Positions 3,018 to 16,048 of a DNA stretch of 32,000 nucleotides are shown piece by piece (positions within the stretch are counted from its first letter, which is position 1; every line of letters begins with the position of its first letter). Origin of the DNA: Erysipelotrichaceae bacterium (GTDB lineage Bacteria; Bacillota_I; Bacilli_A; Erysipelotrichales; Coprobacillaceae); NCBI GenBank assembly GCA_028698185.1, contig JAQVDW010000003.1, forward strand, positions 115,312 to 147,311, written 5' to 3'. The position numbers and the translations under genes are program-made. The notes below the pieces were generated by a model. It saw nothing but the letters and a program-made list of their open reading frames with translations, was not told where the DNA came from and searched no databases.

Positions 3018-3075
3018 AAAGGAAAGTATGATTGCTTTTCTTTTTTAGCAGGGTGATTTTGAAAGGAGCCGAGTG

Positions 3076-3891
3076 ATGAAAAACAGGATAATTGCTGCAG
3101 TTATTGCTTTTTTTGTGATTGTTTCGGCTACCTTGGTTGTCCTGGCATTCAGCCTTGATCCGATTAGCCTGAAAAAGGAGACCTTTGTCTTCCAATATGG
3201 AGAGGCCATTCCTCAGGAAGTCTACGAGTATGCGAATGGGTCGAGCGAGGTACTCGACCTTTCAACTTTGGATCTGACTCAGGTGAAGGCCGATATCGGG
3301 TCCTATCCGGCGAGCTTGACTTACTACAACAAGACATATGACTTTACCATCAAGATTGTGGATACGACTCATCCTGTGGCTGTCTTGAAGCAGGTCCAAG
3401 TCAATATCGAACCGCATGATACCCTGACTGCCAGTGACCTGGTCGAAGTCACCGACAATTCAAGTTTTGTGGCCTACTTCATCCTGGAAGACGGGGCCAC
3501 CAGTGAGACCCAGACCTTCAATGAAATCGGGTCTTACGTTGAAAACATTGTCGTTATCGACGCTTCCCAGAATGAATCGGCCAAGTTGCGGATCAAGATT
3601 GTCGTCCGTTACAATAATGATATTCCGACCTTGACAGGAGTCGAGGATTTGGAAATCTATCTTGGCAAGGATTTTGACCCTTATCTTGGGGTGAAGGCGA
3701 CTGACGGCAAGGGCAATGATATCACCGGCAATATCGTGATTTTGAAAAATGATGTGGATACCCAAAGCATAGGTGTCTACACTGTAATCTACAAGATAAC
3801 CAATGAACAAGGAAATACAATCCAGGTAAACCGTAAGGTCACTGTGATTGAAAACCCTGGGGTGTTGGATTCGCTGGATAATCGAACCTGA
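3076..3891 (+). CDS. membrane-anchored protein with about three tandem Ig-like (DUF5011-like) modules, function unknown
   Basis: AAAGGAG at 3062-3068 sits 7 nt before the ATG at 3076. There is an N-terminal TM helix (IIAAVIAFFVIVSATLVVLAF). Modules repeat, each ending IGSY/IGVY...I(K/V)IV. The last one (PTLTGVEDLEIYLGKDFDPYLGVKATDGKGNDITG...GVYTVIYKITNEQGN) looks like the bacterial Ig-like DUF5011 type. Confidence 0.75.
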   Translation: MKNRIIAAVIAFFVIVSATLVVLAFSLDPISLKKETFVFQYGEAIPQEVYEYANGSSEVLDLSTLDLTQVKADIGSYPASLTYYNKTYDFTIKIVDTTHPVAVLKQVQVNIEPHDTLTASDLVEVTDNSSFVAYFILEDGATSETQTFNEIGSYVENIVVIDASQNESAKLRIKIVVRYNNDIPTLTGVEDLEIYLGKDFDPYLGVKATDGKGNDITGNIVILKNDVDTQSIGVYTVIYKITNEQGNTIQVNRKVTVIENPGVLDSLDNRT

Positions 3892-3943: not shown

Positions 3944-5528
3944 ATAGTCCGGAATCTCCGTAGTTTTTAAGAACGCGGGCACTTGGATCGTCAACATCAC
4001 AGTTTTCCCATTCCTTGTTGGGCATCCAGAAATCTTTGATCCATAAGTCTTTGCCTGGATAATAAGATTCGAAGATATCACGGTACAGAAGGGATTCTTT
4101 TGTGAATGGTGTGTGGGTTGGATATTTCACACTTGCATTCTTCAAGTCCTCATCACTGTAGTGTTCTTGTGCGTATTCTTTAAGGTAATCCACCATCGAG
4201 TGTCCAACTGCATCGGAGAATGCCGCCTTTTCCCTGAAAAGAATCTCATCAGGAAGATAACCGGTACCTTCGAATGCGTGGCGCAGCAGATATTTACCTT
4301 TGTTGTAGGTGTTCATTTTCTTGGCAGGATCGATGCTCATGGCATATTCAACAAAGAACTTGTCTCCAAAAGGAACGCGGCCTTCCAGGGAGTTTGCCGA
4401 AATGCAGCGGTCGGCACGAAGCACGTCATACATGTAAAGTTCGCGAATTCTTTTCGCGGACTCTTCCTGGAACGCTTGAGGAGTCGGAGCGAAATCGGTA
4501 TATTTGTACCCGAAGATTTCGTCGCTTACCTCTCCTGTCAGGATTACCTTGATGTCAGTGTTTTGCCGGATGTAACGGCAAAGAATGAACATCGCCATGC
4601 TGGCGCGGATGGTTGTAATATCGTAAGTTTCCAGGTTGTAGATTACTTCCCGCAAGTTGTCCAGCACATCATCTTTGGTCATGATGACTTCGGTATGGTC
4701 TGTTTTCAAAAAGTCGGCAACCTGTTTGGCGTATTTCAAGTCAATCGGATCTGTTTCCATCCCGATTGCGAATGTTCTGATTGGCTTGTCGGCAAGTCTT
4801 TGACCGATTGCACAAACCAAAGAAGAGTCCAATCCACCAGAAAGAAGATAACCGATAGGCGCATCGGATTGCAATCTCTTTTCAACGCTGACTTCCAATT
4901 TCTCTCTAAGTTTGTTTGCGATAGTCGGAATGTCATCTTGAACAAAGTAATCAACAGTGCTCAGGTCATGATATTGAGTGAACTTGCCGTCTTCATAATA
5001 GTGGCCTGGAGGGAATGGATATATTTCATCGCAATATTCCATTAATGCCTTTGCTTCTGAAGCGAAACAAATTTCTTTAGTGACTTTCTCGTAACCATAA
5101 AACATCGCCCGAATTCCCATTGGATCGCGGGCTGCCATCAATTTATTGTTGTTTTCATCTTTGATAACCAAAGCGAACTCGCCATCCAGCGATTTGACTA
5201 GAATTTCGATTCCGTATTTCAGATATCCGGGAATTATGACCTCGCAGTCACTTCCGGAATTAAAGTGATAACTGCTCTCAAGATTATTTTTTAGTTCAAG
5301 GTAATTATAGATCTCACCATTACATACCATAGTACAATTATTGTATTCGAATGGTTGATTCCCATGATCGCTTAAGTCCATGATAGATAGACGATTGAAA
5401 CCATAGGCGATACCTTTTTTTATAACTAATTCTTGATCATCAGGCCCGCGATAGCTTGCAGCATCTAAGGCTTTTTGGAGTCTTTGTTTGTTCATGTCTT
5501 CACTTTGAACAACTAGTATTCCACACAT
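3942..5528 (-). CDS. asnB: asparagine synthase (glutamine-hydrolysing)
   Basis: MCGILVV is a class-II amidotransferase N terminus, which needs Cys2, so the start is the ATG at 5528 rather than 5537. The SGGLDSS PP-loop motif is present, and length and overall similarity fit AsnB. Confidence 0.95.
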   Translation of the reverse strand: MCGILVVQSEDMNKQRLQKALDAASYRGPDDQELVIKKGIAYGFNRLSIMDLSDHGNQPFEYNNCTMVCNGEIYNYLELKNNLESSYHFNSGSDCEVIIPGYLKYGIEILVKSLDGEFALVIKDENNNKLMAARDPMGIRAMFYGYEKVTKEICFASEAKALMEYCDEIYPFPPGHYYEDGKFTQYHDLSTVDYFVQDDIPTIANKLREKLEVSVEKRLQSDAPIGYLLSGGLDSSLVCAIGQRLADKPIRTFAIGMETDPIDLKYAKQVADFLKTDHTEVIMTKDDVLDNLREVIYNLETYDITTIRASMAMFILCRYIRQNTDIKVILTGEVSDEIFGYKYTDFAPTPQAFQEESAKRIRELYMYDVLRADRCISANSLEGRVPFGDKFFVEYAMSIDPAKKMNTYNKGKYLLRHAFEGTGYLPDEILFREKAAFSDAVGHSMVDYLKEYAQEHYSDEDLKNASVKYPTHTPFTKESLLYRDIFESYYPGKDLWIKDFWMPNKEWENCDVDDPSARVLKNYGDSGL

Positions 5529-5559
5529 ATTTATCACCCTTTCGTTTTATATTGTATAC

Positions 5560-5588
5560 AGTATACCGAATTGAAAATCTAAATGCAA
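5560..5588 (-). promoter_or_regulatory. candidate sigma-A promoter for asnB
   Basis: On the minus strand: TTGCAT (5588-5583), a 17-nt spacer, then TATACT (5565-5560), about 30 nt upstream of the asnB start. Confidence 0.55.
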
Positions 5589-5741
5589 TTGTTTTCACGG
5601 AATATTGAGAAAAATTTGGCCAATTCATAAAAAGCACGCATATCATCATGGTAGTGGCACAATATTTACCAGTGAGACAAAACCGGAACCATATTGATAC
5701 CAAAATACCGTAAAAACATGCTACGATATTAGTGTCTTTTA

Positions 5742-5770
5742 TTGACAACGATTTCTACTTTAGGTACTAT
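5742..5770 (+). promoter_or_regulatory. candidate sigma-A promoter for the HAD phosphatase gene
   Basis: TTGACA (5742-5747), a 17-nt spacer, then TACTAT (5765-5770), 25 nt upstream of the ATG at 5796. Confidence 0.6.
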
Positions 5771-5795
5771 TGAAACAAAGAAAAGGAGCGCTATA

Positions 5796-6611
5796 ATGAA
5801 ATATAAATTGATTGCTTTGGATTTGGATGGTACCCTTACAGACTCAAATAAGTTAGTTTTACCCAAGACGGCAGCCATACTCAAAAGGCTTGCCCAAAAA
5901 GGAGTAATTATCACACTTGCATCAGGTCGACCTACTCCAGGGATGCATTATGTAGCGGACACTGTCGAACTTGAAAAAGGCGGCTATGTTCTTTCCTTTA
6001 ACGGGGCCAAAATTATCAATTGGCGGACTAAAGAAGTAGTATATCAAAAGACGTATGACAAAAGCATCGGTCATCAGGTTATCGATCGGGCTAGAGAGTA
6101 CAATCTATGTTCAATCAGCTACAGTGATGAAGCTATATTGACTCAGACCCCTGAAGATGAATACACGATTGAAGAGGGACGGATCAACAACATGGAACTC
6201 TTGAAAGTATCCGATATCAAAACGGTCCTTGATGACAACGTCGACAAGCTGTTGCTAACTGGCGATGGTGATTATCTGGCGAAGATAGTCGATGAGTTCA
6301 AACAGCCGTTTGAAGGTCAGCTGGCGATCTATCGTTCGCAGCCATTCTTCATTGAAGTCATGGCGGAGGGCATCGACAAAGCCCAATCGCTTGACAGCCT
6401 GATCAAGGAATTGAACATCAAACAGGAAGAAGTCATCGCTTTTGGCGATGGATATAATGACCTTTCGATGATCGAATTTGCGGGATTAGGAGTGGCAATG
6501 GAAAATGCCTGTGATGAAGTTAAACAAAAGGCGGACACGATTACCCTGAGCAATGACGAGGACGGAATCGCCCATATTCTCGAGCATCTCGAATTGAACG
6601 GAGCATTCTAA
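5796..6611 (+). CDS. Cof-type HAD-IIB family hydrolase (sugar-phosphate phosphatase-like)
   Basis: MKYKLIALDLDGTL carries the DxDGT motif I, ...ASGR... is motif II, and GDGYNDLSM is motif IV. AAAGGAG at 5782-5788 precedes the ATG at 5796. The ORF-track start at 5742 lies inside the promoter. Confidence 0.9.
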   Translation: MKYKLIALDLDGTLTDSNKLVLPKTAAILKRLAQKGVIITLASGRPTPGMHYVADTVELEKGGYVLSFNGAKIINWRTKEVVYQKTYDKSIGHQVIDRAREYNLCSISYSDEAILTQTPEDEYTIEEGRINNMELLKVSDIKTVLDDNVDKLLLTGDGDYLAKIVDEFKQPFEGQLAIYRSQPFFIEVMAEGIDKAQSLDSLIKELNIKQEEVIAFGDGYNDLSMIEFAGLGVAMENACDEVKQKADTITLSNDEDGIAHILEHLELNGAF

Positions 6612-7891: not shown

Positions 7892-7913
7892 TATTTCCAA
7901 ATTCAATATCTTA

Positions 7914-7935
7914 GATGCCATTGGCATCTTTTTTT
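7914..7935 (+). terminator. Rho-independent terminator after ilvA
   Basis: GATGCC (7914-7919) pairs with GGCATC (7923-7928) around loop ATT, followed by T7 (7929-7935). Confidence 0.75.
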
Positions 7936-8062: not shown

Positions 8063-8128
8063 ATGTTTTTGCTTGCACTGCTTTCATTTTTAGTGGCAAC
8101 AATCCCGATGATTATCAAATTGTATTGA
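8063..8128 (+). CDS. candidate 21-aa hydrophobic micropeptide (MFLLALLSFLVATIPMIIKLY)
   Basis: AAAGGAG (8050-8056) sits 6 nt before the ATG at 8063. The product is a single predicted TM-like helix. The ORF ends 25 nt before the adhesin gene start. The only evidence is the RBS and hydrophobicity. Confidence 0.3.
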   Translation: MFLLALLSFLVATIPMIIKLY

Positions 8129-8153: not shown

Positions 8154-10523
8154 ATGAACAAAAACAGGAAGCACCAACCAATTATTGCCTTTCTAATATT
8201 ACAAATTATAATTTATCTCTCAATCAATAACGTCCAGGGCATAAGCGCGTTGAGCATCCTGGAAAATGTTCCCTATCCTTTCTATCCGGCTATAAATGCC
8301 AACATGTACCAGGTTGAGGGCGACATCGGCTTCAGTGTGAATCCGTCAAAGACGCCCCAGCCATCGGGCACAATCACTTCTCAATATCAAAGCGCGGATG
8401 CGAATCTGATCAAGGCTCTTTATTATGGCTATTCGGGTCCGGGCAATCTGATGAGTGACCTGTCGCTCGCCCAACAGAAAACCTACACCCATCTTTTGGC
8501 CAGTTACATCTATTCCATGGACATGGGAGGGCTGACTTTCTATACGCTGCAAAGCTATTTCAACTGCAACTTGATTGACTATTACAACCAGCTTCCTTAT
8601 TTGCAGGATCCCAACCATTACGAATTGGCATTCACAAACGAGCGGCTGGATTTTGTGAGCGACGGGCTGGTCCAAAGGTCGGATTCGACCCGGCTGGTCG
8701 CCACTGATGGTACGGGCGGATATTTCGATCTGCCGGATGGTCTGACAATCGTTAATGAAACAACCGGTATTGTTACAACGTCGCAGCGCTGTCATGTCCA
8801 AGCTCAGGATTTGATCCATTTCGAAGCGGCAGCCAATTATCTTGGCGAGTTTGCGACTGTGGATTTCACCCTGGCAAGCAATGTCTTCGATTACCGGGTC
8901 AATCTTGCCAAAGTGCAAGGTACGGTCGATCCGGCAAACCCCGTCAACGACGGGTACCAGGCAGTCGCGAGTCTGCTGAAGATTCCAAAAGAGATCCATA
9001 CATCTTTGGATCTGGAATTTCAGTTCAAACCCAAGCTGTCAATCAAAGCGCAGTCGGATAAGGGAGATGCGATCACCGGTCAGGCAATCAGTGTCACCGG
9101 ACCAGGTGCATACGCGAATTCGAGCCATACTGATGGAAACGGAATATTGGAACTGGTGAATCTCGAACCGGGAACCTACTTCATCACCCCGGCCGCCACA
9201 AACTTCCCTTACAGGGAAAACACCGGAGTCTACAGCGTGACTGTCAACTATCGCCAGAGTCAGGAAATGACAATAATATTTGACGAACTGACCCAGGCAA
9301 CCGCAACCTATCTGTTGAATGGTGAAAATCCGCCGTTGTTATCAGAAAGTTTCAATATCAATGATGACTACCAGACCAGAGGATTCGCTGATTTTATGCT
9401 CGATGGTTATGACCCAACCGGTATCGCGATCGTTAAAGATGGTCTACCGATTTTGGAATCAAAAGAAGCGGACGAGGTGATCAACGGCATTTTGATTGGC
9501 AAAAGTGATTTTTCCAATTGCCTTGATTATGTGGAAGGAGGATATCGACTGACCATCGATCTAAAAGCGGATCTGTCGGCTATTGCCATCCCGGTGTTTA
9601 GCGGCCGCAACGGCATAATCAACATCGCCGACGTGAATGAGGCCAATCTCAAAGAAATGATTTATGATGCGACCAAAGTAAAATGCATGTATGAAGACAT
9701 TGATGAAACAGCGGCATTGACCGTCAAAGACCTGAACATCGATTATTTCAACAGGCCGGGAATAGCGGTTGTCGAGTTTAACTTTTTGAGCCCCGCCGGT
9801 CTGAATTTCAAAAAAAGTTATAATGTGCTCGTTGTCGGGGCGCAAGATGGAGACGGGGCCAATCCGGTAAGGTTCATCGATAAGGACAATTTCAATAAAC
9901 TTGGCACCGGTTTTTTTGGCACAGTTCAGGTGGCGAACAGTTTGCTTGAGGATAGCCTCTTTAAAGAACAACCGGTGTTATCCTGCAGTCTAAAAAGTGA
10001 CAATCTTCAAATGATCAAGGAAGATTATCGGGACATTGAAAACTTCGACCGATACTATCATGAAGCCATCGAAACTGGCATGAGTGCAAGCCTGCCGCCG
10101 ATCGAAACAGCTCAAATAGAAGCGTCATTTGATGAGGGGCGGGCAATATCAATATATGCAAAAGGGGTGATGCTGGAAGAAAGCGAAATCTATCTCGATA
10201 TATCAAATTATCGCAACGGACAAGTCGAGTGCCTGCTTGCCCTAAAAGAAACTTATTCGGGTTCGTTAAGAATAAATGGCTACCAGAACAAGACAAGTAT
10301 GGCGATGGCGACAATTGAAGACATTGCCGTGCAACGGTTCAACGGTGTGTCCAAATATCCCGAACCCGTGATTTATGTACAAGACAACAGGCTTCTTCGT
10401 GGGCGCGATTATCAGTTAAGCTACGCTGATAATGTCCAGGCCGGAGAAGCGACCATCATTGTGATGGGAATTAACAGGTATCAAGGTGAACTTACAGTGA
10501 ATTTTAAAATAGAAGGAGAATAA
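8154..10523 (+). CDS. secreted multidomain adhesin-like protein (thioester-domain-like N-terminal region, CnaB/SpaA-type prealbumin-fold domain, C-terminal Ig-like module); no LPXTG or TM anchor
   Basis: The Sec signal peptide is MNKNRKHQPIIAFLILQIIIYLSINNVQG. Residues ~294-377 (TGQAISVTGPG...HTDGNGILELVNLEPGTYFITPAATNFPY) match the CnaB/SpaA-like pattern. The C terminus YQLSYADNVQAGEATIIVMGINRYQGELTVNFKI is the common Gram-positive Ig-like repeat pattern. The protein ends ...KIEGE with no sorting signal. Confidence 0.85.
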   Translation: MNKNRKHQPIIAFLILQIIIYLSINNVQGISALSILENVPYPFYPAINANMYQVEGDIGFSVNPSKTPQPSGTITSQYQSADANLIKALYYGYSGPGNLMSDLSLAQQKTYTHLLASYIYSMDMGGLTFYTLQSYFNCNLIDYYNQLPYLQDPNHYELAFTNERLDFVSDGLVQRSDSTRLVATDGTGGYFDLPDGLTIVNETTGIVTTSQRCHVQAQDLIHFEAAANYLGEFATVDFTLASNVFDYRVNLAKVQGTVDPANPVNDGYQAVASLLKIPKEIHTSLDLEFQFKPKLSIKAQSDKGDAITGQAISVTGPGAYANSSHTDGNGILELVNLEPGTYFITPAATNFPYRENTGVYSVTVNYRQSQEMTIIFDELTQATATYLLNGENPPLLSESFNINDDYQTRGFADFMLDGYDPTGIAIVKDGLPILESKEADEVINGILIGKSDFSNCLDYVEGGYRLTIDLKADLSAIAIPVFSGRNGIINIADVNEANLKEMIYDATKVKCMYEDIDETAALTVKDLNIDYFNRPGIAVVEFNFLSPAGLNFKKSYNVLVVGAQDGDGANPVRFIDKDNFNKLGTGFFGTVQVANSLLEDSLFKEQPVLSCSLKSDNLQMIKEDYRDIENFDRYYHEAIETGMSASLPPIETAQIEASFDEGRAISIYAKGVMLEESEIYLDISNYRNGQVECLLALKETYSGSLRINGYQNKTSMAMATIEDIAVQRFNGVSKYPEPVIYVQDNRLLRGRDYQLSYADNVQAGEATIIVMGINRYQGELTVNFKIEGE

Positions 10524-10524
10524 C

Positions 10525-10680
10525 ATGAAAGATTTTTTAGGTGAATACGGATTGGTAGTGGTGACAGCTTTAGTGATTCTGGCGTTTGTCGTAATTGGTC
10601 CCGAAGTTGGGAACCAGGTCGGTGATGCGATAAAGGCTCAAGTGACAAATATCACAACCCAAACAGCTCCTGGAGTCTGA
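10525..10680 (+). CDS. Flp-like pilin candidate, 51 aa (MKDFLGEYGLVVVTALVILAFVVIGPEVGNQVGDAIKAQVTNITTQTAPGV)
   Basis: This ORF is not in the ORF track and was found by reading. GAAGGAG (10512-10518) lies 6 nt upstream, the ATG is 1 nt after the adhesin stop, and the stop overlaps the ATPase start (TGATG). The EYGL motif followed by a hydrophobic helix is as in Flp/Fap pilins (xxxxEYGLI). Confidence 0.7.
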   Translation: MKDFLGEYGLVVVTALVILAFVVIGPEVGNQVGDAIKAQVTNITTQTAPGV

Positions 10681-11684
10681 TGGAACTGATAGATGAGGTG
10701 ATTCCCCGAGAGATGTTCGGGGAATTGTCCGTTTATTTGGATGACGATAATATCACCGATATCAATTACAATGGTCAGACCGTTTGGGTGGACCATATTT
10801 GCAAGGGCCGATATCAGGCTGACATCGTCTTGAGCGAGGAGTTCATCGATGCGTTCATTATGAAGATAAAAAACAGTGTCTCGAAGAATTTCAATATCGA
10901 ACACAATGTGCTTGAGGCTGAGACGGCGCAGTTGAGAATCTCGATTATCCACCACTCCGTGGCGAAGACCGGAACAGCCATCTCGATCAGGAAGACACCG
11001 CCAAAACAAAGGCTCAATGAACTTCTGATGCTTGAAACCGGCTACTGCGATCAGGCCATTATCGATTTTTTAAGCAAATGCGTCAAATCATCATGCAATA
11101 TCATAATCGCCGGAACTACTGGTTCGGGTAAAACAGAATTGTTGAAATGGCTCACGAATTTCATTGAAGCCAACGAGAAAGTCATCACTATCGAAGACAA
11201 TCTTGAGATCCATTATCGCCAGATAAATCCGGGCAAAGATTGTATCGAGCTGAAGGTCGACGAGAAACGGTTCTCCTATTCCAAAGCGATAAAGACATCG
11301 TTGCGCCAGCTGCCCCAATGGATCATTCTTTCCGAGGCACGCTCAGTCGAAGTCAAGTATTTGCTCGAAACATTTTCAACAGGGCACAACGGGATAACGA
11401 CAATTCATTGTGATGACGTCAGAAAGATACCTAAAAGAATAAAAAATATGATTCAGGATGACATAAGCGAGGAGGTATTGTTCGATGATATTTTCAGTTT
11501 CATCGATATTGGCATATTGATTTCCAAACATATCGTGAACAACGAAATCAAGCGTCGCATCGAGCAGATATGCGTCTACGATTTTGTTGACAAAAAAAGG
11601 GAGACCGTAATGATTTACGAAAGGGACCGCATTCCCCTGCACGGGGATTCTCCGAAGCTGAAACGGAAATTTGAAGGTCTGTAG
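10680..11684 (+). CDS. TadA/CpaF/VirB11-family secretion ATPase
   Basis: Motifs present: Walker A AGTTGSGKT (11109-11135), ITIEDNLEI (Asp box), WIILSEAR (Walker B-like) and TGHNGITTIH (His box of the TadA/VirB11 type rather than GspE TGHLV). ISIRKTPP matches the conserved tIRKf segment. Confidence 0.9.
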   Translation: MELIDEVIPREMFGELSVYLDDDNITDINYNGQTVWVDHICKGRYQADIVLSEEFIDAFIMKIKNSVSKNFNIEHNVLEAETAQLRISIIHHSVAKTGTAISIRKTPPKQRLNELLMLETGYCDQAIIDFLSKCVKSSCNIIIAGTTGSGKTELLKWLTNFIEANEKVITIEDNLEIHYRQINPGKDCIELKVDEKRFSYSKAIKTSLRQLPQWIILSEARSVEVKYLLETFSTGHNGITTIHCDDVRKIPKRIKNMIQDDISEEVLFDDIFSFIDIGILISKHIVNNEIKRRIEQICVYDFVDKKRETVMIYERDRIPLHGDSPKLKRKFEGL

Positions 11685-11692
11685 GGGGGACA

Positions 11693-13156
11693 ATGAAAAC
11701 AAAGATCAAACGTTATTTCAAAGTTCAAAGCGAGATTGAACGTTACGGTTACAGTTTTTCAATGAGGCGGTTCTATCAGGTAGTTGCATTTTCTATTATC
11801 CTGATAGTTGTCATCGGAATAACGTTCAACCTGAGCCGGGGCTATCTTGCTTGCGTGATTCTTGTCATGGTCGCATCCCTGCCCCAGATAATCACAGTCA
11901 CCTACAGGGGGCTTGATTCGCAACAGCGGTTCGCCGATTTGAACAATTATCTTGAACAACTGGTTATGTCATTCAAGCGACGGGGCAATTTGATTACGGC
12001 CTTGCAGGAGACACGGCAGATATTTGCCCCGGGTGCGATGGCTGTGATTCTTGACCGGGCGATAGGGCATATCAATGAGGCGAATGGCAGTGAGGCCTAT
12101 CGCCAGGGGCTGGGTATGATCGAAGAAAAATACGGGTGCTCACGGATCAGAAAAGTCCACGATTTCCTGTATGATGTTGAGAAATTGGGCGGCGATTACG
12201 GATCGGTCCTGAACCTGATCGACCAGGAGCGGTTGCTGTGGCAGGAACGGGTCTATCTTGTTGCCGCAGGAAAGAAGCAAATTGAAAAGACCATCTACCT
12301 GTCCTGTGTTATGGCAACAATAATCGCGGCGGTGATGGGTCTTATTTTACCTGATGAACTTAATGTGTTCGCCCTTGATTATCTACAGCTTCTCACGGCC
12401 GGATACCTGGTGGCGATAATCGTCATTGTGACTGTTGTCCACTCGTTGCTTTCTGGTGGTTATTTTGAGGAACTCCGGGTTCTCGATCAACATGAGTATG
12501 AAAAATATGTCCGGTTGCACAGTCAAAGGGGACTCTTGAACCGGAATGACATCATATCGCTCTTTATTGTGGCCGTGGGTCTGCTTTTGCTGGCTGTAGG
12601 AAGGCAGGTTGTCGCAGCTGGTATTTTAGCCATGGTTTTTGTCCTGATCATAATAAAAATCGGCGGTCGCAAAAAAAGATGTCAGCGGGTATTGCAATCA
12701 AACCTTTCCATTGCTTTCATGTACTGGCTTCTTGATATCTCGCTCTTGCTGCAAAACAACAATATCCATATGGCCATCAAACAATCCATAGAAAAAGCTC
12801 CGGCAATGTTGCAAAATGATTTGAAAAAGCTGGTTGATGACCTGGAAAAGTCACCAAACTCGATAACACCATATCAGAATTTTCTGGGCGGTTTCGATTT
12901 GCCGGATGTCAAATCGGTCATGCGCTCATTTTACGCTCTTGACCGGAATGGCTCCGGAAGTAACGGTAAGTTTTTAAACGACCTGCTTGAGCGGAATAAT
13001 CATCTGGTCGACAAGACGGAAAAACTGGCGTTGGAAAATCGGCTGGCTTATATAAATGTGCTTCAATACTTGCCCATGCTTCTGGCGACATTCAAGCTGC
13101 TTGGCGATCTGACAGGATTCATGATGGTTCTTATTATAAAGATGAAAGGGGGTTAA
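11693..13156 (+). CDS. polytopic membrane protein, apparent TadB-TadC (T2SS-F-like) fusion platform protein
   Basis: It consists of two similar halves. Each has N-terminal TM helices, a ~110-aa soluble helical segment (e.g. LEQLVMSFKRRGNLITALQE...; MAIKQSIEKAPAMLQNDLKKLV...) and C-terminal TM helices. Its position directly after the ATPase fits a platform protein. The family assignment is an inference. Confidence 0.7.
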   Translation: MKTKIKRYFKVQSEIERYGYSFSMRRFYQVVAFSIILIVVIGITFNLSRGYLACVILVMVASLPQIITVTYRGLDSQQRFADLNNYLEQLVMSFKRRGNLITALQETRQIFAPGAMAVILDRAIGHINEANGSEAYRQGLGMIEEKYGCSRIRKVHDFLYDVEKLGGDYGSVLNLIDQERLLWQERVYLVAAGKKQIEKTIYLSCVMATIIAAVMGLILPDELNVFALDYLQLLTAGYLVAIIVIVTVVHSLLSGGYFEELRVLDQHEYEKYVRLHSQRGLLNRNDIISLFIVAVGLLLLAVGRQVVAAGILAMVFVLIIIKIGGRKKRCQRVLQSNLSIAFMYWLLDISLLLQNNNIHMAIKQSIEKAPAMLQNDLKKLVDDLEKSPNSITPYQNFLGGFDLPDVKSVMRSFYALDRNGSGSNGKFLNDLLERNNHLVDKTEKLALENRLAYINVLQYLPMLLATFKLLGDLTGFMMVLIIKMKGG

Positions 13157-13161
13157 GTCTG

Positions 13162-13260
13162 ATGGTTGAAATTATTGGCGAATACGGACAAGTTGTGGTT
13201 TTAGGCGTTATTAGTCTGATTTTGATAGGCGCATTTAGTTATCTGGCTTCAATAGTATGA
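13162..13260 (+). CDS. Flp-like mini-pilin candidate, 32 aa (MVEIIGEYGQVVVLGVISLILIGAFSYLASIV)
   Basis: Not in the ORF track. AAGGGGG lies 10 nt upstream. The GEYGQ motif plus hydrophobic helix is paralogous to 10525-10680. The stop overlaps the next start (ATGA). Confidence 0.6.
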   Translation: MVEIIGEYGQVVVLGVISLILIGAFSYLASIV

Positions 13261-13400
13261 AGGCGGTGATAAGCGAGTACGGATTGACTGCAGTCGGCGT
13301 GTTGGTGACATTTGTGTTGTTACAGGTGATTGGCCAGCTACTGGGCGGCAATCTGCTCTATGAGTTGGTGCGCATCAAGGCGGACTGCATGTTTTTATGA
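13257..13400 (+). CDS. Flp-like pilin candidate, 47 aa (MKAVISEYGLTAVGVLVTFVLLQVIGQLLGGNLLYELVRIKADCMFL)
   Basis: Not in the ORF track. ATGA overlaps occur at both ends (13257-13260 and 13397-13400). It has the SEYGL motif plus a hydrophobic helix. Confidence 0.6.
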   Translation: MKAVISEYGLTAVGVLVTFVLLQVIGQLLGGNLLYELVRIKADCMFL

Positions 13401-13855
13401 AAGCAACGATTGAAAACTACGGACAGGTACTGGTGGGTGCCATCCTTGTTGTGCTTTGCCTGGGATTCTTGAATTTTGCCTTAGCTGCCTCTTATCTACC
13501 ATCAATCAGAAGCGTACCGGTTCCCTGGCGAAGTCCAAGTGAACTTCTTGATTTCGTCCCATTAGATATCAAGTCAAATCCGGGTCTGGTTGATCCGGTA
13601 GATCTGATCGGCCAGGACACATTCGGTTTCAATGATTTTTCATATCTAAAAACCCAAGGCACCGCCATTTACTACCGGGACGTCGATTATAATCGAGTCA
13701 TGGTTCAAAGCGATTTTGTCAATGGGGATAGTCTCGATTATTCAAATGTGGATTTTCATGACTACCATAGTTTCATTGACAAAGTCAGGATAACAGCCAT
13801 CATCAATAACCAGGTACTGGTCAAAGAAGGTATGGTAATAATAGAGGAGGACTAG
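13397..13855 (+). CDS. pseudopilin-like protein, 152 aa, with a Flp-type N terminus (MKATIENYGQVLVGAILVVLCLGF...)
   Basis: It shares the N-terminal register of the small pilins (Y at residue 8, G at 9) and continues into a ~110-aa globular part. It is translationally coupled on both sides. Confidence 0.7.
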   Translation: MKATIENYGQVLVGAILVVLCLGFLNFALAASYLPSIRSVPVPWRSPSELLDFVPLDIKSNPGLVDPVDLIGQDTFGFNDFSYLKTQGTAIYYRDVDYNRVMVQSDFVNGDSLDYSNVDFHDYHSFIDKVRITAIINNQVLVKEGMVIIEED

Positions 13856-14173
13856 ATGAAAAGCGCAATTGAGTTATATCTTTCGATTTTTGTGATTGCC
13901 ATATTCGGGGTCCTATGCGCAAACATGGTTGCCATGAACATTGAAGCCAACAATGTCAGGAGTTATCATAACGCTTGCATCCAAGTGATTGAGAACAGCG
14001 GCCACAACCAGGATGTCATAAACCAACTCATCGAAGAATCTCCCTATGATCTTGCTGTGGAACGGAATCCAAGCAACGGGGTGATCACAAGCCAGGTGCG
14101 AGTCGGTTATAATTACACAATCCCGCTTTTGAACTTCAGCGAGTACTATTGTATCGAGGGGGTCGCACGGTGA
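13856..14173 (+). CDS. TadE-like pseudopilin candidate, 105 aa
   Basis: GAGGAGG (13844-13850) precedes an ATG that abuts the upstream stop. MKSAIELYLSIFVIAIFGVL keeps E6 and Y8 of the shared register. The small beta-rich C-terminal part (VRVGYNYTIPLL) is reminiscent of TadE/TadF. Confidence 0.6.
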   Translation: MKSAIELYLSIFVIAIFGVLCANMVAMNIEANNVRSYHNACIQVIENSGHNQDVINQLIEESPYDLAVERNPSNGVITSQVRVGYNYTIPLLNFSEYYCIEGVAR

Positions 14174-14721
14174 AACAGGCGGTGCTGGCGTTTGGGATGC
14201 TTGCCATGGCAATCGGAGCAATAGTGGTCATACTTGCTTCAAACTTTCAAGTCAACAAGGAGACCATGTTTGAAAAGGCTGTGAGCGACAGCCTGTACAA
14301 GAGCCTCGAAGATATGTGTTTTTATAACCCGGATATGAGTTATGAGCAGATCTTCAATGGCTATATGACAAATCTGGCAATCAATCTCAATGGCACAAAC
14401 AAGCTCAAGGTGGACGTGGTTACAATTGACAGGAATTTTGGGATTATGGATACCATTAACGAACTTACCTACAGCGACTTTTTCAATAATGAAAAGACGA
14501 TTACCATAAGGAAGACGATCATCCACAATCCGGAAGTAAAAAATGATTTCTATCAAGTCGACTTCGTGGTTGATGATGCTTTCAAAGGTGCCCTTTTTGT
14601 GAAAATCGGGACCACAGTCGCCCAGGCGATTGCGGATTTTGGCTGCAAGGCGGATTGGAATCTAAACGGCCTTGATCCTGACGAACCAATCACTGATGAC
14701 CTGACTATATACGCAAATTAA
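14170..14721 (+). CDS. membrane-anchored pseudopilin/TadF-like candidate, about 184 aa
   Basis: I preferred the GTG at 14170 because it gives a GTGA overlap with the upstream stop and GAGGGGG lies 7 nt upstream. The ORF-track start at 14149 is an alternative. N-terminal hydrophobic helix: AVLAFGMLAMAIGAIVVILA. Confidence 0.6.
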   Translation: MKQAVLAFGMLAMAIGAIVVILASNFQVNKETMFEKAVSDSLYKSLEDMCFYNPDMSYEQIFNGYMTNLAINLNGTNKLKVDVVTIDRNFGIMDTINELTYSDFFNNEKTITIRKTIIHNPEVKNDFYQVDFVVDDAFKGALFVKIGTTVAQAIADFGCKADWNLNGLDPDEPITDDLTIYAN

Positions 14722-14743
14722 TCCGATTGTATCGGATTTTTTT
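14720..14743 (+). terminator. Rho-independent terminator ending the pilus-like operon
   Basis: AATCCGAT (14720-14727) pairs with ATCGGATT (14731-14738) around loop TGT, with a T-run to 14743. It overlaps the stop codon. Confidence 0.85.
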
Positions 14744-14792
14744 GCTTTATCCGGAATCTGAAAAAATGGTTAATAATTTTACGAACTTTTCC

Positions 14793-14846: not shown

Positions 14847-14921
14847 ATGCCAAAACTGACAGCTAAAGTGAATATTTGTGTGTCACAAGGCGAATTTTTT
14901 ATCGTTGGTTTTTGTTGTTAA
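14847..14921 (+). CDS. candidate 24-aa leader peptide (MPKLTAKVNICVSQGEFFIVGFCC) in the carAB leader
   Basis: GGAG (14835-14838) sits 8 nt before the ATG at 14847. The stop TAA (14919-14921) abuts the first base of the terminator stem. The last 30 nt are U-rich. Confidence 0.4.
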   Translation: MPKLTAKVNICVSQGEFFIVGFCC

Positions 14922-14951
14922 CACGTTACCCTATAGGTGACGTGTTTTTTT
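14920..14951 (+). terminator. intrinsic terminator inside the carAB leader (attenuator)
   Basis: ACACGTTACC (14921-14930) pairs with GGTGACGTGT (14936-14945) with one G-U pair, around loop CTATA, followed by T6-7 (14946-14951). It lies 17 nt upstream of the carA ATG and before its RBS AAGGAGG (14957-14963). Confidence 0.75.
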
Positions 14952-14968: not shown

Positions 14969-16048
14969 ATGAAAGCATATTTAATTTTGGAAGATGGAAA
15001 TGTGTTTGAAGGTGAAAGCATCGGCGCTAAAAAAGAAATCATTAGCGAGTTTGTTTTCAACACGTCGATGACGGGTTACTTGGAAGTATTGACGGACCCT
15101 TCTTACTGTGGCCAATCAGTTGTTATGACTTATCCATTAATCGGGAATTATGGAGTGGCTTTGGAAGACCAGGAATCATCTAGGGCTTTTTTATCGGGAT
15201 TTGTGGTTAAAGAACTGGCACGGCTTGGAAGCAATTTTAGAAAAAACGTCGAATTGTCACAATACCTGGTTTCACAGGACATTGCCGGGATTCAAGGTGT
15301 TGACACTCGGGCAATCACTAAAATCATCCGCAAAAAAGGTTGCATGAACGGGATGATCACTACAACCAAACATGAAAATCTTGACGAAGTACTAGAAAAG
15401 ATCAAAGCATTCAAGGTTACCGGAGTTGTTGAAAAAACAACTTGCGACCAACCTTACACCTTAGGTGAAGGAACTAAAAGAGTTGCCTTGATGGACTTTG
15501 GAGCCAAGCGCAATATCGCCAAATCACTTGTTAAACGTGGTTACCAAGTGACTGTATATCCTGCAAGCACAAAGGCAGAGACAGTGTTGGCAGAGAATTA
15601 TGATGGAATCATGCTTTCAAACGGTGCGGGAGACCCTGAAGAAAACGTCGAAATAATCAAAGAAATCAAAAAATTGAGCGAATCAAATGTGCCGATCTTT
15701 GCAATTTGTTTAGGTCACCAGCTGATGGGTCTGGCTCACGGATTCAAGACTGAAAAAATGAAATACGGTCACCACGGTGCAAACCACCCGGTAAAGGATC
15801 TAGCTAGCGGTCGTGTCTATATTTCGACTCAAAACCACAACTATGTAATTGATGAAAAGACGATTGATCCCAATACCGCTGAAGTATGGTTCAAGAACGT
15901 AAATGACAACACCCTTGAAGGGCTTGTTTATAAAAACAAAAATATCAAAACCGTGCAATTCCATCCGGAAGCTTGTGCGGGGCCACTGGATACAGACGCC
16001 TTATTTGATGAATTCACAAAGATGATGGGAGGAAATGTTAATGCCTAG
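14969..16048 (+). CDS. carA: carbamoyl-phosphate synthase small (glutamine amidotransferase) subunit
   Basis: The N terminus MKAYLILEDGNVFEGESIG is typical of CarA. The GATase triad region is PIFAICLGHQL ... QFHPEA. Confidence 0.96.
   Translation: MKAYLILEDGNVFEGESIGAKKEIISEFVFNTSMTGYLEVLTDPSYCGQSVVMTYPLIGNYGVALEDQESSRAFLSGFVVKELARLGSNFRKNVELSQYLVSQDIAGIQGVDTRAITKIIRKKGCMNGMITTTKHENLDEVLEKIKAFKVTGVVEKTTCDQPYTLGEGTKRVALMDFGAKRNIAKSLVKRGYQVTVYPASTKAETVLAENYDGIMLSNGAGDPEENVEIIKEIKKLSESNVPIFAICLGHQLMGLAHGFKTEKMKYGHHGANHPVKDLASGRVYISTQNHNYVIDEKTIDPNTAEVWFKNVNDNTLEGLVYKNKNIKTVQFHPEACAGPLDTDALFDEFTKMMGGNVNA

Follow-up and report, generated by a model that had tools for sequence, protein, structure and literature searches.

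A compact Tad/Flp-like operon with predicted leaderless pilins and an anchor-less adhesin in an Erysipelotrichaceae genome, and its relatives on Gram-positive conjugative plasmids

A stretch of 32,000 nucleotides from the genome of an Erysipelotrichaceae bacterium (assembly GCA_028698185.1, contig JAQVDW010000003.1, positions 115,312 to 147,311 of the forward strand), called the window hereafter, carries a block of nine genes at positions 8154 to 14721. They code for a large secreted adhesin without a wall anchor, very small pilin-like proteins, a secretion ATPase and a polytopic membrane protein. The analysis, conducted entirely in silico, inclines us to view the block as one operon for a minimal, peptidase-independent filament of the Tad/Flp-like kind that presents the adhesin and is fitted to single-membrane Firmicutes. 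An earlier annotation, made from the letters of the window alone (the sequence-only reading), had already proposed a compact Tad/Flp-like machine, and its parts were recovered: pilins with E-Y N termini, an ATPase of the TadA/CpaF/VirB11 class and a two-halved platform protein. The present work adds that the pilins are predicted to carry no leader peptide, and that relatives of the module occur in many gut bacteria and on conjugative plasmids.

Organisation and conservation of the operon

The nine open reading frames (ORFs) of the plus strand lie where the sequence-only reading had placed them, with junctions of -4 to +8 nucleotides (nt): a 1-nt gap, a 1-nt overlap (TGATG), intervals of +8 and +5, two ATGA overlaps, one abutting pair and one GTGA overlap. 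The genes and boundaries are listed below, with protein sizes in amino acids (aa) and ratios of nonsynonymous to synonymous substitution rates (dN/dS).

7913-7935, plus strand: terminator of the upstream ilvA-like gene (PALP, PF00291), a hairpin at 7913-7929 with a T-run; left boundary of the unit
8063-8128, plus strand: candidate tenth gene, a hydrophobic micro-protein of 21 aa (MFLLALLSFLVATIPMIIKLY); AAAGGAG 6 nt upstream
8154-10523, plus strand: secreted anchor-less adhesin, 789 aa; Pfam TED_2
10525-10680, plus strand: major Flp-like pilin, predicted leaderless, 51 aa (MKDFLGEYG...); weak Flp_Fap match and profile matches in the PDB
10680-11684, plus strand: secretion ATPase, 334 aa; T2SSE
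11693-13156, plus strand: polytopic two-repeat platform protein, 487 aa; internal duplication and borderline T2SSF match
13162-13260, plus strand: tiny Flp-like pilin, predicted leaderless, 32 aa (MVEIIGEYG...); same position in all related loci, dN/dS 0.17
13257-13400, plus strand: tiny Flp-like pilin, predicted leaderless, 47 aa (MKAVISEYG...); position kept in relatives, dN/dS 0.08
13397-13855, plus strand: pilin-like protein with a globular C-terminal domain, 152 aa (MKATIENYG...)
13856-14173, plus strand: minor-pilin-like protein, 105 aa (MKSAIELY...; C-terminus ...GVAR)
14170-14721, plus strand: N-anchored protein of 183 aa, last gene of the module; GTG start with GGGGG 8 nt upstream
14720-14746, plus strand: intrinsic terminator with a stem of eight pairs and a T-run (14720-14738 in the scan); right boundary of the unit, with carA next at 14969

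Hairpins with T-runs (7913-7929 and 14720-14738) thus bracket the block, as had been claimed. Shine-Dalgarno motifs stand ahead of most starts. For the last gene, GTG at 14170 is better supported than TTG at 14149, and gene callers also give a protein of 183 aa. The junctions, together with the signal peptide and the C-terminus of the adhesin, bear out the view that the module shares its orientation with, and is translationally coupled to, the gene of a secreted adhesin without an anchor. The surroundings are likewise housekeeping genes, as described before: an ilvA-type PALP enzyme upstream, carA and carB downstream and a pst operon further on. Precomputed Pfam annotation of positions 680-21684 and a scan of the remaining ORFs revealed no mobility gene, relaxase, VirB4, VirD4 or integrase in the window, and no Peptidase_A24, TadZ/CpaE or sortase either, in agreement with the sequence-only reading on both counts.

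The reality of such short genes was assessed by comparison with L010 (related loci are cited by L numbers), a Coprobacillaceae relative in which the locus occupies the same ilvA-to-carA position and whose synonymous sites are saturated relative to the window. The proportion of nonsynonymous differences (pN) is far below that of synonymous differences (pS) for all nine genes, the 32- and 47-codon ORFs included, and dN/dS lies between 0.03 and 0.20 for the seven genes with a correctable dS. The 51-aa pilin is 94% identical between the two loci at saturated dS, and the ilvA-carA position is kept in three diverged genomes. All nine genes are real and under purifying selection, and the block recurs in relatives; the check on conservation suggested with the sequence-only reading therefore came out in its favour. 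The suspicion that automatic annotation skips the small pilin genes also proved right, since the 32- and 47-aa genes are missing from the NCBI annotation of the source metagenome-assembled genome (MAG).

Pilins without a leader and without a peptidase

The pilins of this family start with the pattern M-K-x-x-x-x-E-Y-G. In the window, the 51-, 32-, 47- and 152-aa proteins each begin at the first start codon after an in-frame stop. Among 55 distinct N-termini from about 20 related loci, Met always precedes the E of E-Y-G by exactly six residues; for 36 of them no start further upstream is possible, and elsewhere the distance to an alternative start is not conserved.

The proposed check against Flp_Fap (PF04964) returned a weak match only, with an E-value (E) of 0.076 and 13.3 bits against a gathering threshold of 32.2 for the 51-aa pilin; five of the 12 members of the major-pilin family are matched, with a best E of 0.003. 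Mature Tad pilins were nevertheless matched in the PDB by the major-pilin profile, namely Caulobacter PilA (8u1k, E 0.006) and Flp (8u2b, E 0.03). In both alignments residue 7 of the query falls on mature residue 5, which puts the E-Y N termini noted by the sequence-only reading in register with mature Flp and suggests that the window pilins correspond to processed Flp preceded by Met-Lys. As the residue equivalent to -1 is Lys, and position 6 is either Gly or Glu, a conserved Gly(-1) site is lacking. Of the features of a class III signal peptide, these proteins have the hydrophobic helix and the Glu, but the "leader" would consist of Met-Lys, with neither Gly nor Ala at -1. Methionine is not removed by methionine aminopeptidase when Lys, Arg or Gln occupies position 2.

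These pilins are thus predicted to carry no leader peptide and apparently need no prepilin peptidase. No A24 peptidase is annotated by Pfam within 10 kb on either side of loci L001-L009 and L023-L028. The leaderless state of the pilins may account for this absence better than a gene encoded elsewhere. Leader-bearing pilins and a dedicated peptidase are part of the definition of type IV filaments, and to our knowledge the prepilin peptidase is regarded as universal for the superfamily.

The secretion ATPase and the platform protein

The ATPase sequence shows the Walker A, Asp, Walker B and His boxes as they had been described, and the T2SSE family (PF00437) matches with an E of 1e-27 (96.8 bits against a gathering threshold of 24.9). 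The best matches in the PDB are GspE of A. fulgidus (2oap, 1e-24), then CpaF (2e-18), the H. pylori VirB11 protein HP0525 (1e-15) and FlaI. 

Alignment of the ATPase with CpaF starts at residue 148 of the 501-residue chain and at residue 69 of the chains of 423-424 residues, which makes it a VirB11-sized core without the N-terminal domains of CpaF. The protein scores well below the cut-off of every NCBIfam equivalog, the best being VirB11 (TIGR02788, 120.7 against 249.95 bits). An identity as ComGA, which the sequence-only reading had also discarded, was rejected (NF041000, 72 bits against a cut-off of 300). Relatives of the ATPase carry a recent Pfam family, PF27713, named only "UCP018868". 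The window protein is a member of the TadA/CpaF/archaeal-GspE/VirB11 class.

The 487-aa protein has no family match of its own in Pfam, and the proposal that it represents a fusion of TadB and TadC was borne out in one part. Its two halves repeat each other, with aa 97-204 aligning to about 355-459 in HHalign (probability 91%, E 9e-7), but similarity to single TadB and TadC sequences of Rhizobium went undetected. The family consensus of the N-terminal half matches T2SSF at E 2e-5 over profile positions 2-121 of 125 (24.9 bits against a gathering threshold of 25.2), and T2SSF is the commonest weak Pfam match in the family (15 of 61 members). The label of two-repeat T2SSF-like platform rests on this duplication and on these borderline matches. 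An AlphaFold2 model is all-helical, with a mean predicted local distance difference test score (pLDDT) of 74.6, and Foldseek gave it no match with an E below 0.3. Profile searches of the PDB with two alignments of the family returned chance matches only. The family comprises 651 cluster representatives, mostly from gut Clostridia among those sampled.

The larger pilin-like proteins

Five further proteins with pilin-type N termini had been announced downstream of the platform gene. The 32-, 47- and 152-aa proteins do begin in the manner of the major pilin, and the 105-aa protein begins with MKSAIELY; the 183-aa protein has an N-terminal anchor only and no family match. The 105-aa and 183-aa families are conserved in all loci. 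For the 105-aa protein, a homologue search gave only four close relatives, and the AlphaFold2 model (pLDDT 89.8) consists of a helix at residues 2-47, a short helix and a three-stranded sheet, so that its predicted topology is pilin-like. TadE (PF07811) has no match among the window proteins in Pfam.

Proteins of relatives at the position of the 152-aa protein keep the EYG N-terminus, and some carry a BspA-type leucine-rich repeat domain (LRR_5), as does the 203-aa EYG pilin of L020 (E 8e-13). Since LRR_5 is grafted onto the EYG N-terminus, these are modular pilins, and adhesin modules may be shown directly on the pilin scaffold. Such EYG pilin-like genes with LRR_5 lie at 11996-12607 in L020, 11623-12744 in L015, 11633-12757 in L012 and 11582-12676 in L016.

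The adhesin and the large secreted partners

The 789-aa product of the first annotated gene has a signal peptide, a class-II thioester-type domain (TED, aa 38-151; TED_2, PF20610, 47.1 bits against a gathering threshold of 27, E 3e-12), a prealbumin/CnaB-like domain, a weak Pfam match to SpaA and an Ig-like C-terminus. It ends in ...GELTVNFKIEGE, with no LPXTG motif and no transmembrane segment; the TED thus gives substance to the secreted adhesin without LPXTG anchor of the sequence-only reading. With no sortase in the window either, the protein lacks the marks of a sortase-anchored one. The thioester Cys is replaced by Ser in the window (GFSVNPS, around 8334-8342, aa 61-63) and by Asn in L010, and it is kept in L019 (AFCLNAS) and in TIE of the pLS20 family (VFCIDPD). 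Because of this replacement no canonical Cys-Gln thioester is possible, and the chromosomal copy probably binds non-covalently or has changed function.

The module occurs widely among Lachnospiraceae and Erysipelotrichales. It is carried, among others, by Ruminococcus sp. OA3, Fusicatenibacter, Faecalimonas, Robinsoniella peoriensis, Lactonifactor longoviformis, a Fimenecus MAG and Coprobacillaceae MAGs, and the same arrangement occurs on many metagenomic contigs. In the recurrent order, one to three major pilin genes precede those for the ATPase and the platform, after which come two tiny pilins, the larger EYG pilin and proteins of about 110 and about 200 aa. TadZ/CpaE was found neither in the window nor in any related locus.

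A large signal-peptide protein adjoins the module, and once lies inside it, in almost all of about 13 distinct contexts. The partners range in length from 789 to about 2400 aa, and their domains are of the TED, BspA-type LRR, Flg_new or beta-helix kind; no LPXTG was seen in those whose C-termini were read. The exception is L021, with a 406-aa NlpC/P60-like protein. The giant partners of Lachnospiraceae share a C-terminal domain of about 100-160 aa (...VRFIS.KY...YTHEQV..IK...), without LPXTG and with no family found, seen in L007, L011-L018, L020, L022, L023 and L028. This "VRFIS" domain might serve in docking or retention; it resembles aa 514-643 of the window adhesin only weakly (E 6e-4, probability 29%).

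Some Lachnospiraceae copies adjoin a relaxase, DUF3801 and a VirD4-type coupling protein, or ParA/ParB/SSB, which suggests that the module also travels on plasmid-like elements or integrative and conjugative elements (ICEs); most others lie among housekeeping genes. In L022 (356-7727), L015 (800-8305) and L023 (1-5322) the module is found downstream of a MobA/VirD2 relaxase, DUF3801 and a VirD4-type protein, or beside a 2501-aa SNF2-type helicase, or beside ParA/ParB/SSB.

Relationship with conjugative plasmids

The closest plasmid homologues of the ATPase come from Bacillus (546 records), Paenibacillus, Listeria and Enterococcus. On a B. subtilis plasmid (L029) the order is a 775-aa TED adhesin, a 126-aa protein, an ATPase of 407 aa and proteins of 267, 247, 114, 47 and 65 aa, sizes that match genes 34 (Tie), 36, 37, 38, 39, 40 and 41 of the pLS20 family (PMC8557374). 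In the conjugation operons of that family, genes 34-41 are described as Tie, p36, a "putative VirB11" and p38-p41 (PMC8557374, PMC8092201), and CDS 17-26 of pAW63 form an equivalent block beside a 1416-aa surface protein (PMC1196294). These papers call the ATPase VirB11 and the other genes "unknown" (PMC8557374, PMC8092201, PMC1196294), and the authors of the pAW63 study report a backbone that this plasmid has in common with pXO2 (PMC1196294).

The window ATPase shares 32% identity with p37 (E 3e-45). By HHalign, p38 resembles the N-terminal half of the platform (95%, E 2e-8) and p39 the C-terminal half (94%, E 1.5e-7), and aa 1-232 of the adhesin align with aa 1-229 of TIE (94.6%, E 7e-8), FSVNPS standing opposite FCIDPD. 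Judged by these alignments, the window module is homologous to pLS20 genes 34 and 37-39. The plasmid Tie gene adjoins the homologues of the window ATPase and platform. The small proteins of window and plasmids are alike only in size, position and topology. A tblastn search of plasmids with a Lachnospiraceae platform protein gave no match. On a Paenibacillus plasmid two half-platform genes, one of them named FlaJ in RefSeq, flank the ATPase between VirD4 and VirB4.

Gene order and protein sizes agree with those of pLS20 34-41 and pAW63 17-26, where an LPXTG-free TED adhesin and a small N-anchored protein are followed by the ATPase, two membrane proteins near 250 aa, one protein near 115 aa and single-transmembrane proteins near 47 aa. 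The plasmid block differs in lying inside a VirB4/VirD4 operon, in a platform split into two genes, in small proteins without the E-Y-G signature and in a Tie that keeps the thioester Cys.

The statement of the sequence-only reading that this was not a described architecture is not supported: judged by the refuting condition which that reading had itself set, the gene set does exist in a known system. It is published in these conjugation operons, as Tie, VirB11 and unknown genes, and the claim of novelty is softened for that reason. Among the open-access papers searched, none was found to interpret the module as a type IV filament. The apparent novelty lies in seeing this gene set as a lineage of type IV filaments that has leaderless pilins, lacks a peptidase and is tied to anchor-less adhesins.

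Proposed model

In the model that we favour, the 51-aa pilin and its 32-, 47-, 152- and 105-aa relatives would insert by their N-terminal hydrophobic helix, with Met-Lys alone left in the cytoplasm. Being made in essentially mature Flp form (E7 corresponding to E5), they would require no A24 step. A hexameric ATPase, seated on the two-repeat platform, would extract and polymerise the pilins into a thin filament or short pseudopilus across the wall, which the 152-, 105- and 183-aa proteins might prime or cap. The Sec-exported anchor-less adhesin would be held on the cell and presented by the filament, allowing adhesion to a host, a particle or other cells. The window copy would represent a stable chromosomal adhesion version, and on plasmids and ICEs the same device would serve to form mating pairs.

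Several points weigh against this model. Filament formation, peptidase independence and docking of the adhesin are all inferred from the genes. Homology of the platform to T2SSF is borderline and not proven: the Foldseek matches of highest probability are the cytoplasmic domains of EpsF, OutF and PilC (0.66-0.87) but with E around 1, and HHalign of the platform halves against single Rhizobium TadB and TadC sequences did no better than the pstC and pstA controls. The model of the 105-aa protein has no significant structural relative by Foldseek, only unrelated PAS-like matches. Comparison of the 152-, 105- and 183-aa families with p36, p40, p41 and their neighbours gave nothing significant (best E 0.003, 105-aa against p40). 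Covalent adhesion as in Tie is unlikely for the window copy, and no docking domain common to all the large neighbours was found. The peptidase search covered the window and 10-kb flanks, so that a gene elsewhere in the genome may supply the enzyme. Finally, the Met-Lys N-terminus keeps its positive charge, which might hinder extraction from the membrane.

A wider idea is put forward more tentatively, as possible rather than probable: that many single-membrane Firmicutes and the conjugative plasmids and ICEs of Bacillus, Listeria, Enterococcus and Lachnospiraceae build an unrecognised, peptidase-free class of type IV filaments that present adhesins such as Tie. Tie is required for mating in liquid, has no sorting signal and is sortase-independent, and its attachment has been called an "intriguing question" (PMC8092201); the published view in the pLS20 papers is that Gram-positive elements form no conjugative pili (PMC8557374, PMC8092201). 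If the idea is true, these elements do have a mating pilus, and the retention of Tie on the cell would be explained. A widespread lineage with pilins made mature would change the definition of type IV filaments, and one ATPase, one platform protein and pilins would give the size of a minimal machine. The matter is relevant to colonisation of the gut and to the way in which conjugation in liquid spreads resistance genes.

Alternative explanations

The same genes could encode a pseudopilus or piston resembling a type II secretion system, pushing or releasing the large Sec-exported neighbour through the thick wall with no long adhesive fibre. We consider this unlikely, although it is the alternative that survives best. 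It would suit the pairing of the module with very large anchor-less secreted proteins and the tiny size of the pilins, and type IVb pili export TcpF (V. cholerae) and CofJ (enterotoxigenic E. coli). However, the major pilin gene is present in up to three copies in relatives, which suggests bulk demand for the subunit, LRR domains fused to pilin N-termini argue for display rather than export, and monoderm bacteria export giant LPXTG proteins without such help. Piston and display cannot be separated from the sequence.

A conventional Tad/Flp pilus, with pilins cut by a TadV, ComC or PilD encoded elsewhere in the genome, is improbable. Type IV filament systems often rely on a peptidase that is unlinked or shared, and in Bifidobacterium breve tadV is unlinked (PMC6668835). 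Here, however, there would be nothing to cleave but the Met-Lys before the +1 equivalent, with no conserved Gly or Ala at -1; TadZ/CpaE is missing from every locus, the ATPase is without the CpaF N-terminal region, and no A24 gene is near any Pfam-annotated locus (10-kb flanks).

It is improbable to a similar degree that the genes are a part of the conjugation machinery, a VirB11-type ATPase and accessory membrane proteins of a type IV secretion system (T4SS), and that the window holds a domesticated or decaying remnant of an element. VirB11 is indeed the best NCBIfam match of the ATPase (120.7 bits), homologues lie in conjugation operons of the pLS20 family, of pAW63, of a plasmid of pXO2 size and of a Paenibacillus plasmid, between VirD4 and VirB4 (PMC8557374; PMC1196294), and some Lachnospiraceae copies stand beside a relaxase, type IV coupling protein, ParAB or SSB. 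Against this, relaxase, VirB4, VirD4 and integrase are all absent from the window, every VirB11 model scores far under its cut-off, ilvA-carA synteny in three diverged genomes goes together with purifying selection, and most Lachnospiraceae copies lie among housekeeping genes. We know of no canonical T4SS that uses T2SSF-like platforms or Flp-like pilins.

A competence pseudopilus of the ComG type, serving to take up DNA, is very improbable: the order of ATPase, platform and five small pilin-like genes mimics comGA-GG, and Tad-type pili mediate transformation in Micrococcus, but the ATPase is far from ComGA (72 against 300 bits), the pilins are of E-Y-G type with the G-FTLxE motif in none of six N-termini, no comEA or comEC is nearby, and the module is linked to adhesins, not to DNA receptors. 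Both the trans-acting peptidase and the competence explanations appear to fit the sequence poorly. A SpoIIIA-like operon, which also combines an ATPase with small membrane proteins, was rejected, as no Spore_III family matches the window proteins.

Comparison with known filament systems

The proposed filament is close in character to Tad/Flp systems (Caulobacter Cpa, Aggregatibacter Tad), with which the module shares very small pilins, E-Y-G in the register of mature Flp, a TadA/CpaF-class ATPase, two putative T2SSF-type platform units, extra pilin-like proteins after the platform and a presumed role in adhesion. It differs in lacking a leader, Gly(-1), TadV, TadZ/CpaE, CpaB and RcpC, in its fused platform units, in an ATPase without the CpaF N-terminal domains and in the large secreted adhesin of the operon. 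Archaeal type IV pili provide the best solved-structure match for the ATPase (GspE, 2oap) and have a single two-repeat platform as in the FlaJ/PilC type, but archaeal pilins bear class III signal peptides cut by PibD or FlaK, whereas those of the window are predicted to be leaderless.

In type IVb pili (TcpF, CofJ) the pilus operon includes a pilus-dependent, Sec-exported non-pilin protein, an arrangement like that proposed for the window, and modular pilins of Streptococcus sanguinis have adhesin domains grafted on pilin N-termini, as in the LRR_5 relatives; these systems are peptidase-dependent and have no sequence relationship to the module. ComG shares the gene order ATPase-platform-pilins and a single-membrane host, but its ATPase and pilin signatures differ and membership was rejected. 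A Tad-like cluster of TANB77 gut Clostridia has a fused, two-halved TadC-TadB platform and several small pilin-like genes, but it possesses CpaB, TadZ, CpaE and a 640-aa TadA, and its pilin-like proteins measure 143-237 aa (PMC11680825).

Additional features of the locus

The 21-codon ORF at 8063-8128 was overlooked by the sequence-only reading and by gene callers. It has a strong Shine-Dalgarno motif and is conserved in L010 (MFLFALISFIVATVPMIIKLY), mostly with third-position changes, amid intergenic DNA that has diverged. The operon thus probably begins with this gene, which annotation has missed. In L019, an extra 360-aa secreted protein with a C-terminal membrane anchor is encoded at 5274-6356, between ilvA and the TED adhesin gene, and the 21-codon ORF was not found in two short stretches read at the ends of that gene. 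In the operon of L010 an element of about 0.9-1.2 kb has been inserted twice, at 8979-9846 and 12785-13544, and the copies are 86-98% identical; both are intergenic, in the ATPase/platform gap and in the gap between the 155-aa and 105-aa genes, and all ORFs are intact.

Across the window, Rfam gave no family above its threshold. Another strong hairpin followed by a T-run, at 14920-14946 (plus strand) just upstream of carA (14969), resembles a pyrimidine-type attenuator. Finally, positions 3073-3891 (plus strand), 4 kb upstream of the operon and with no apparent link to it, encode a 272-aa protein carrying a Bact_surface_Ig-like domain; L010 and L019 have a similar N-terminus at the same relative position.

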